The position numbers and the translations under genes were made by a program. Below the pieces are notes generated by a model that worked only from the letters and a program-made list of their open reading frames with translations, had not been told where the DNA came from and ran no database searches. A stretch of 64,000 nucleotides of DNA, from IMG/VR virus record IMGVR_UViG_3300048599_000816, positions 32,545 through 96,544 of that record; one strand, 5' to 3'. Positions 30,397 through 30,666 of the stretch are shown in pieces (the stretch's first letter is position 1; each line of letters begins with the position of its first letter). This DNA is from a virus.

Positions 30397-30666
30397 CTAA
30401 TAAGCTTCAGAAAATTTGTCTTTGAAAAGTTTCTCAATTGCATCAGCTGCTTCTTCTTCATCTTCTCCTTCAACAGTAAGTTTGATCTTACTTTCATAAA
30501 CAGCAAAAAGCGTCAAAATAGACATCATACTTTTCGCATCAACAATGTTTGAATCTTTTTGAAGTGTAATTTTTGATTTGTATTTCATTGCTGTTTTGAC
30601 AATAAGACAAGAAGGGCGTGCATGCACGCCCTGAGAATTTTCTACTTTAAGATCACGTCGAATCAT
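30397..30666 (-). CDS. ptsH: HPr-like phosphocarrier protein
   Basis: His15 context GVHARPS, Ser46 context DAKSMMSIL, EGEDEEEA; aligns over full length with HPr; ATG overlaps MVP stop (TAATG). Confidence 0.75.
   Translation of the reverse strand: MIRRDLKVENSQGVHARPSCLIVKTAMKYKSKITLQKDSNIVDAKSMMSILTLFAVYESKIKLTVEGEDEEEAADAIEKLFKDKFSEAY

Follow-up and report, generated by a model that had tools for sequence, protein, structure and literature searches.

An HPr-family phosphocarrier gene placed directly behind a major vault protein homologue in the DNA of an uncultivated phage

Overview

A gene for an HPr-family phosphocarrier was identified on the window (the whole 64 kb stretch of viral DNA analysed here), immediately downstream of a gene for a major vault protein (MVP) homologue. 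By each sequence and fold test that was applied, the product of this phage gene is an ordinary HPr. HPr is a central hub of bacterial carbon signalling, and the phage protein probably taps the sugar-signalling relay of its host, a case that is undescribed for phages in the literature searched. What is new is the viral setting of the gene, its orphan state, its fixed coupling to MVP and a palindrome embedded in its active-site codons. Features of the locus are collected in Table 1.

Table 1. Features of the HPr locus and of selected genes on the window
Feature	Position	Strand	Basis and remarks
HPr-family phosphocarrier gene	30397..30666	minus	89 aa, ATG start, TAG stop; PF00381, TIGR01003, AlphaFold2 and Foldseek
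His15 codon (CAT), phosphoryl-accepting histidine in GVHARPS	30622..30624	minus	alignment and AlphaFold2 model
Ser46 codon (AGT), regulatory serine position in DAKSMMSIL	30529..30531	minus	alignment and AlphaFold2 model; phosphorylation putative
Major vault protein (MVP) homologue	30666..33296	minus	876 aa from ATG 33296; MVP_shoulder, Vault_3
TAATG junction, MVP stop overlapping HPr start	30664..30668	minus	direct reading; putative translational coupling
Shine-Dalgarno AGGAG serving the MVP-HPr-171-aa gene string	33303..33307	minus	7 nt before ATG 33296
Perfect 18-nt GC-rich palindrome GGGCGTGCATGCACGCCC	30614..30631	both	HPr codons 12-18
171-aa clade-restricted gene	29873..30388	minus	starts 8 nt past HPr stop; PADLOC PtuA models
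Macro-domain protein (DarG-like)	29312..29815	minus	PADLOC DarG E 8.8e-9; phrog_335
R2K-clade ATP-grasp, predicted peptide ligase	33447..34178	minus	PF18299 101 bits
Ribosomal protein bS21	17000-17212	minus	Pfam Ribosomal_S21 E 8e-17

The gene product and its key residues

The ORF was matched by the Pfam model PTS-HPr (PF00381) over profile positions 2-80 of 81 with an E value of 5.1e-26 and a score of 91 bits (cut-off 23 bits), which confirms with a profile HMM the reading of this ORF in the initial annotation as a full-length HPr that includes the His15 and Ser46 regions. The NCBIfam model TIGR01003 gave a score of 88.7 bits (cut-off 47.9 bits). The protein was found to lie under every NCBIfam equivalog cut-off, for example that of PRK13780 (66 against 110 bits), and the NPr model PRK10897 (NF008146) scored it at 42.7 bits against a cut-off of 119.

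Alignment with the HPr proteins of B. subtilis and E. coli showed His15, Arg17 and Lys45-Ser46 to be invariant between these and the phage HPr; the region of His15 and Ser46, whose loss on careful alignment had been held to speak against the annotation, was therefore found to be kept at both residues. For a wider comparison, 1.84 billion cluster representatives were searched with HMMER, and 125 single-domain cellular relatives were selected from the result. The residues conserved in at least 90% of these relatives (N10, G13, H15, R17, S46, G67 and D69) were all retained in 5 of 5 distinct phage sequences, with His15 being present in 99% of the relatives and Ser46 in 96%. Residues 13-18 (GVHARP) are invariant in all phage copies and conserved at 98-100% in the relatives, and positions 45-46 read K45-S46 in the window HPr and R45-S46 in L023, a phage locus of IMG/VR described below. 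Only two departures from a strong consensus were identified in the phage HPr, namely S19 (Ala in 74% of relatives) and M/V47 (Ile in 72%). Restricted to the sub-clade of the window are F54 (A or G in 70% of relatives) and E58 (G in 67%), both of which sit just beyond helix 2, beside the binding face.

An AlphaFold2 model of the protein (pLDDT 83.6) contains strands at residues 2-8, 32-37, 40-43 and 59-66 and helices at residues 16-27, 47-53 and 70-85, giving the open-faced beta-sandwich of beta-alpha-beta-beta-alpha-beta-alpha topology that is seen in HPr, with His15 capping helix 1 (16-27) and Ser46 capping helix 2 (47-53). Comparison of this model with the PDB using Foldseek returned 39 matches at E<=1e-3, all of which were HPr, Crh or NPr, the top TM scores being 0.88 (1KKL) and 0.87 (3LE1).

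A single face, formed by helices 1 and 2, is used in all HPr partner interactions. In B. subtilis HPr, residues I47, M48 and M51 touch CcpA together with phospho-Ser46 (PMC10287919). The corresponding positions 47/48/51 are M/M/L in the window HPr, V/M/L or V/M/M in the other lineages of the window clade and I/M/M in L023, and the partner-binding face of helices 1 and 2 is intact in the phage proteins. The sequence context of Ser46 had also been described in the initial annotation as Gram-positive/Bacteroidetes-like. It is no evidence for an HPr kinase (HPrK) circuit of that type, as Ser46 is found in 96% of the 125 relatives and also in species that are without HPrK/P; V. cholerae, for instance, does not possess HPrK/P yet its HPr keeps Ser46 (PMC10287919). 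Ser46 conservation is uninformative on HPrK because kinase-less species keep the residue too.

PTS partners on the window

Searches with Pfam of the ~120 ORFs of the window (48 singly and 73 small ORFs as a batch) identified no Enzyme I (EI), Enzyme II (EII) or HPr-kinase domains, and tblastn with EI, EIIA-Man and PtsN from bacterial loci gave no match, whether against the window or against loci of related phages. The earlier observation that the window is without ptsI and EII genes was thus reproduced at this sensitivity. The HPr is an orphan within the 64 kb analysed; the whole genome probably exceeds 300 kb, and its remainder may encode an EI. The genes surrounding the phage HPr are those of MVP, PtuA-like and macro proteins, with no rpoN/ptsN/rapZ context.

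Relatives of the phage HPr, gene order and selection

A word-indexed search of 5.8 billion proteins returned only five relatives of the HPr. Relatives P0001, P0002 and P0003 are 94%, 78% and 73% identical to the window HPr, respectively, and are spread over 11 contigs with one common gene order (R2K ATP-grasp, MVP, HPr, 171-aa gene, macro, RNase T). A search of IMG/VR with an MVP alignment identified 57 loci, among which only the closest, L023 (MVP 65-67% identical), carries an HPr; this protein is 56% identical and its gene begins at the base following the MVP stop. Direct HPr scans of IMG/VR found none, with a method that is low in sensitivity given that the L023 copy surfaced later via MVP. 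HPr is kept in four to five phage lineages (the window, P0001-3 and L023) on 12 related contigs, and its ORF is intact in 12 of 12 phage HPr loci.

Pairwise omega values for HPr were 0.27-0.37 between members of the clade and 0.52 when L023 was compared, as against 0.10 for MVP, 0.12 for the macro protein, 0.15 for the 171-aa protein and 0.23 for the R2K ATP-grasp. In the comparison across the cluster, HPr ranged over 0.35-0.52 and its neighbours over 0.10-0.25, which makes HPr the least constrained protein of the cluster by this measure. Values of dS for the neighbouring genes were 1.8-2.4, with that of HPr being lower. By these values the HPr is under purifying selection that is weaker than that on its neighbours, and such a degree of constraint would suit a core phosphocarrier and an accessory or adaptive binder equally.

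Coupling of the HPr gene to the MVP gene

The MVP homologue was recognized by PF11978 (MVP_shoulder; 80.5 bits, cut-off 25) and PF17795 (Vault_3; 36.6 bits, cut-off 28.8). The TTG at 33302, which the mechanical ORF list gives as its start, was rejected in favour of the ATG at 33296, most likely the true start since the AGGAG lies 7 nt ahead of it. The stop codon TAA of MVP (30668-30666) and the ATG of HPr (30666-30664) have one base in common. At the same junction in relatives, ATGA or a 0-nt gap was found, so that the two genes overlap or abut in every lineage. Inspection of the upstream sequence listing revealed no Shine-Dalgarno motif ahead of HPr. This contact of stop and start, along with an HPr that is without a Shine-Dalgarno motif, points to translational coupling from MVP and lends support to the initial annotation, in which HPr was described as co-translated with MVP.

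A palindrome in the active-site codons

The codons around His15 were found to form a perfect palindrome, which extends to 20 nt (30613-30632) if the A and T on either side are counted. The element is identical in 12 of 12 phage HPr loci, L023 included; in L023, 55% of the other codons with a conserved amino acid are identical, compared with all codons of the palindrome. Across five lineages, 7 of 7 palindrome codons show no variation, whereas elsewhere this holds for 14 of 33 (naive P ~0.0025). The codons used are rare in this genome (GGC 9%, GTG 8.5%, CGC 3.8%; joint probability 2e-5), and no second perfect hairpin that is rich in GC occurs in the 64 kb; the number expected from shuffled sequence is zero. 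The palindrome was found to be absent from cellular HPr genes.

At the RNA level a hairpin with a 7-8 bp stem (about -14 kcal/mol) is predicted to begin ~35 nt past the MVP stop, and in the window clade a stretch rich in U comes after it, the whole being flagged as terminator-like. Our leading guess is that the palindrome would act between the two cistrons, as an attenuator or a 3' stabiliser, and put MVP well above HPr, with the alternative that it could be a putative DNA-binding site. A role as a cre (CcpA) operator was considered and rejected owing to mismatch to the cre consensus. Comparison of positions 29500-34000 with Rfam gave chance-level matches only, and a promoter scan likewise did no better than chance, with 38 sites found where 36 were expected.

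Genes neighbouring HPr

The 171-aa protein encoded downstream of HPr is similar to ABC ATPases of the PtuA/AriA type, in their C-terminal part only (PADLOC PtuA models, E 5.8e-6 to 1e-3), with a degenerate Walker B (KFPE) and H-loop (TTSP), and has only 4 homologues among the 5.8 billion proteins. Comparison by hhalign with the AAA_15 protein of the window gave a weak match (probability 23%), and its AlphaFold2 model, at a pLDDT of 59, was too poor for a structure search. The protein may be a dominant-negative fragment directed against Septu- or PARIS-like systems.

The macro-domain protein that follows scored 18.8 bits with the Pfam Macro model, under its cut-off, has the DarG antitoxin as its nearest likeness and is 78% identical in L023. 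Macro-domain genes were also observed near MVP in distant megaphages (L023, 9174-9659; L012, 8647-9426). This recurrence suggests that phage MVP and macro domains are connected through ADP-ribose, echoing the binding of ADP-ribose by the shoulders of eukaryotic vaults. On the other side of the cluster, the R2K ATP-grasp gene was found upstream of MVP in L001-L010 and L023.

With a DarG-like macro protein, a DEDDh exonuclease, the PtuA fragment, NAPRTase, NMNAT, Ral and bS21 in the neighbourhood of HPr, the genes around it are likely to form a host-takeover and counter-defence island. Genes for bS21 have already been reported from other huge phages. An NAD-salvage and nucleotide set was noted on the minus strand at 18423-19640, 15774-17003 and 26825-27817 (NAPRTase, a cytidylyltransferase-like/CoaE fusion and an inosine-uridine nucleoside hydrolase, respectively). 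The NAD-salvage set may counter NAD-depleting defences.

Possible functions of the phage HPr

The explanation tentatively favoured here, although it could well prove wrong, is that the phage HPr is charged by EI and/or HPrK of the host and would act within the PTS signalling of the latter, in line with the hijacking of PTS or catabolite signalling proposed in the initial annotation. The HPr would be produced from the same mRNA as MVP, with ribosomes that end MVP restarting at the overlapping ATG. Host EI~P would then phosphorylate His15, and host HPrK/P would phosphorylate Ser46 if the host has this enzyme; charging could be by host enzymes only, because no phage EI, EII or HPr kinase lies nearby. 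An HPr under phage control would in this manner join the PTS phosphorelay of the host, with sugar uptake and HPr-dependent regulation being altered or sustained in infection. We infer the phosphorylation, the host enzyme used and the downstream effect from the sequence. Consistent with this reading is contig L007 (7318-7623), in which MVP is cut to its C-terminal 101 residues and HPr is retained with its flanks intact, as are the likely host-takeover and counter-defence genes around HPr. The MVP remnant is possibly a natural deletion or, as only a single contig is involved, an assembly artefact. HPr is normally very abundant in cells, and for this reason an extra copy would need a special property to matter. 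The weaker constraint on the phage HPr and the unusual F54 and E58 of the window sub-clade also count against the favoured reading.

The strict adjacency of HPr to MVP, despite an MVP identity of 65-67%, suggests some functional link, and the HPr might be a lineage-specific accessory of a vault-like shell, acting as cargo, as an adaptor or as a phospho-switch for assembly or loading, with the tight coupling of the genes serving to supply it together with MVP. We regard this as unlikely. The overlap or 0-nt gap of stop and start in every lineage including L023, an HPr without a Shine-Dalgarno motif of its own and the kept order R2K-MVP-HPr-macro would all suit such a role, as would the enrichment of NAD/ADP-ribose and counter-defence genes near phage MVPs and the finding that eukaryotic vaults hold enzymatic cargo inside and bind NAD+/ADP-ribose in their shoulder (bioRxiv 10.64898/2026.05.01.722283). 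However, HPr was found to be absent within 6 kb of MVP from 55 of 56 other phage MVP loci, as well as from beside MVP in megaphages LR756500 and LR756501, and the genes directly downstream of HPr-less MVPs vary (HNH, NT5C, isochorismatase, cREC, HD, PRTase and a Tad2-like protein). With MVP occurring without HPr in 55 loci, the function of HPr is therefore apparently separable from MVP, and HPr does not appear to be an obligatory vault partner. The intact HPr beside the MVP remnant of L007 likewise argues against the accessory role, as does the retention of the full residue set for ordinary PTS chemistry, and adjacency within a phage operon often reflects expression timing only. The C-terminal FKDKF(S/G)E tail of HPr was considered as a cargo-targeting peptide and ruled out, since it is common to cellular relatives (P0004, 3LE1) and is not phage-specific. 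Nothing was found to support the delivery of phosphate to the co-translated MVP, as had been proposed at the outset, given the loci and megaphages in which MVP occurs without HPr and the retention of HPr in L007. Distinctly less credible still is a composite proposal in which HPr would be a phospho-regulated part of a phage vault-like compartment within an NAD/ADP-ribose counter-defence island, with the hairpin setting the MVP:HPr ratio; if true, this would pair a protein cage of viral origin with a PTS phosphocarrier, for which there is no precedent.

The HPr could instead be a decoy or phosphate sink that drains host EI~P, or that occupies HPr-binding regulators, kinases or a defence sensor, and so blinds a host pathway. 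Its position in a likely counter-defence island (DarG-like macro protein, PtuA C-terminal fragment, DEDDh exonuclease, NAD salvage and Ral), a protein sequence that evolves faster than its neighbours and the altered residues 54 and 58 beside the binding face are in keeping with such a role, and the concept of a stand-alone phosphoacceptor that buffers a phosphorelay has been described for DtcB of Detocs (bioRxiv 10.1101/2023.01.24.525353). It is nevertheless doubtful, as a sink would still be dependent on host EI, the binding face is conservative and not remodelled, and the HPr matches no PADLOC family. To our knowledge, there is no defence system that uses HPr. That the protein is dispensable, with its ORF persisting mainly as the home of the palindrome or hairpin (an attenuator, 3' stabiliser or protein-binding site), is very improbable. 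Such an origin for the persistence of the ORF could account for an element that is invariant at neighbouring dS values of 1.8-2.4, written in rare codons, unique in 64 kb and terminator-like in the window clade, and for an HPr dS below that of its neighbours. However, omega is well below 1 across the gene, none of the 12 loci has a disrupted ORF, all HPr-defining residues that lie beyond the palindrome (K45-S46, G67, D69 and N10) are also conserved, and an 18-nt element has no need of a 270-nt ORF.

Comparison with known systems

The HPr proteins of Thermoanaerobacter tengcongensis (3LE1) and B. subtilis agree with the phage HPr in length, in fold and in the succession of secondary-structure elements, with 3LE1 being its best sequence match in the PDB (E 6.5e-18, 42% identity). 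Shared between Firmicutes HPr and the phage protein are GxHARP, which contains His15 and Arg17, and K45-S46 ahead of a helix 2 that is hydrophobic. In contrast to canonical HPr, the protein described here is encoded by a phage, has no adjacent ptsI, EII, hprK or ccpA, is at most 51% identical to cellular clusters and possesses the unusual residues F54 and E58. A likeness can also be drawn to NPr (PtsO) and Crh, small signalling paralogues with the HPr fold, some of which are encoded away from EII genes. The phage HPr differs from NPr in scoring below the NPr cut-off and in being without the rpoN/ptsN/rapZ context. In Crh, Gln replaces His15, whereas the phage HPr retains this histidine.

DtcB of Detocs is a small phosphoacceptor, and the phage HPr is likewise a single-domain, kinase-less protein that could act only via host enzymes; DtcB differs in that it has a receiver domain, belongs to a defence operon of bacteria and is not an HPr. 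Phages reportedly use DtcB-like decoys, according to the published Detocs paper. A virus that brings its own HPr without the enzymes that charge it would represent a new route to read or rewrite the nutritional state of the host, and for PTS research the diverged phage HPr would offer a natural probe of partner specificity.

The viral MVPs described previously (Santos et al. 2023) and those of LR756500 and LR756501 are shoulder/repeat-domain proteins like that of the window, but HPr is found behind MVP only here and in L023. This fixed place could provide an experimental handle on the role of vault proteins in prokaryotes and viruses. The preprint of Santos et al. (bioRxiv 10.1101/2023.11.10.566534) makes no mention of HPr, PTS or neighbouring genes. 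Homologues of MVP were observed to be widespread in huge-phage contigs; the IMG/VR loci number 57, with many of the contigs being 100-500 kb long, and far exceed the two viral MVPs reported in 2023.

Origin of the gene and search for precedents

Among the 1.84 billion representatives searched with HMMER, only the HPr's own cluster exceeded 51% identity. The best match from 185,579 species genomes was also at 51% (an unclassified MAG), with other matches being an NPr at 48% in an rpoN-hpf-ptsN-rapZ context, a protein of Blastocatellaceae at 46% encoded beside EIIA-Man and one of Elusimicrobium at 45% in an EII-HPr-EI arrangement. These nearest cellular HPrs (45-51% identity) belong to unrelated phyla, with no identifiable donor. 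The spread of the gene over phage lineages, omega values of 0.27-0.52 and a cellular identity of at most 51% argue for long residence in phages and not for a recent or accidental capture.

No family of PHROGs was found to match the phage HPr. HPr-like matches were present in 21 GenBank records labelled as phage; 4 of 4 that were examined proved to be bacterial chromosomal DNA. These four (CAKLQH020000014.1, OR846597.1, MT835581.1 and MT835502.1; L101-L104) were rejected as precedents for a phage HPr because the genes on the examined stretches are bacterial housekeeping genes, the sets found on the four records being pcnB-folK-panBC-yhbJ-ptsO, ptsH-ptsI, ffh-trmD-ftsX and glmM-rmlD, and the records are contamination or mislabelled. 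HPr, PTS and vault are not mentioned in a survey of 224 jumbo-phage genomes. A precedent for a genuine phage HPr was not found in the GenBank phage records examined, in PHROGs or in the literature searched.

The phage and its host

Almost all genes of the window are on the minus strand, small and densely packed, with a GC content of ~32%. Large ORFs encode a DnaE-type polymerase (phrog_405, 815 bits), a topoisomerase, an NAD-dependent ligase, a CCA-adding enzyme, NAPRTase, an NMNAT-CoaE fusion and FtsK, with bS21 and a Ral-like antirestriction protein among the products of the small ORFs. No match was obtained when 10 kb was compared by megablast with GenBank phages, and neither a capsid nor a terminase gene was seen on the window. 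One relative is located on a 424-kb viral contig of IMG/VR, MVP homologues are encoded by the 462-kb and 735-kb megaphages LR756500 and LR756501, and near-identical contigs derive from activated sludge and a New York wastewater virome, among other samples. There is a strong case for the window being part of an uncultivated huge phage of activated sludge or wastewater, with the term 'huge phage' being an inference only, as capsid and terminase genes were not seen.

No tRNAs were identified on the window. Shine-Dalgarno motifs were found upstream of 49 of 103 genes against a background of 13%, a usage that disfavours a Bacteroidota-like host. The DnaE protein is 30-33% identical to those of phages of Moorella, Bacillus and Streptomyces, with Moorella and Bacillus phages the nearest at about 31-33%, which is a weak pointer to the host. 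Rare genes on the plus strand include one for a dual-specificity/tyrosine phosphatase-like protein (11038-11634; under the Pfam cut-off) and one for a class-3 lipase (13078-13821; 86.5 bits).
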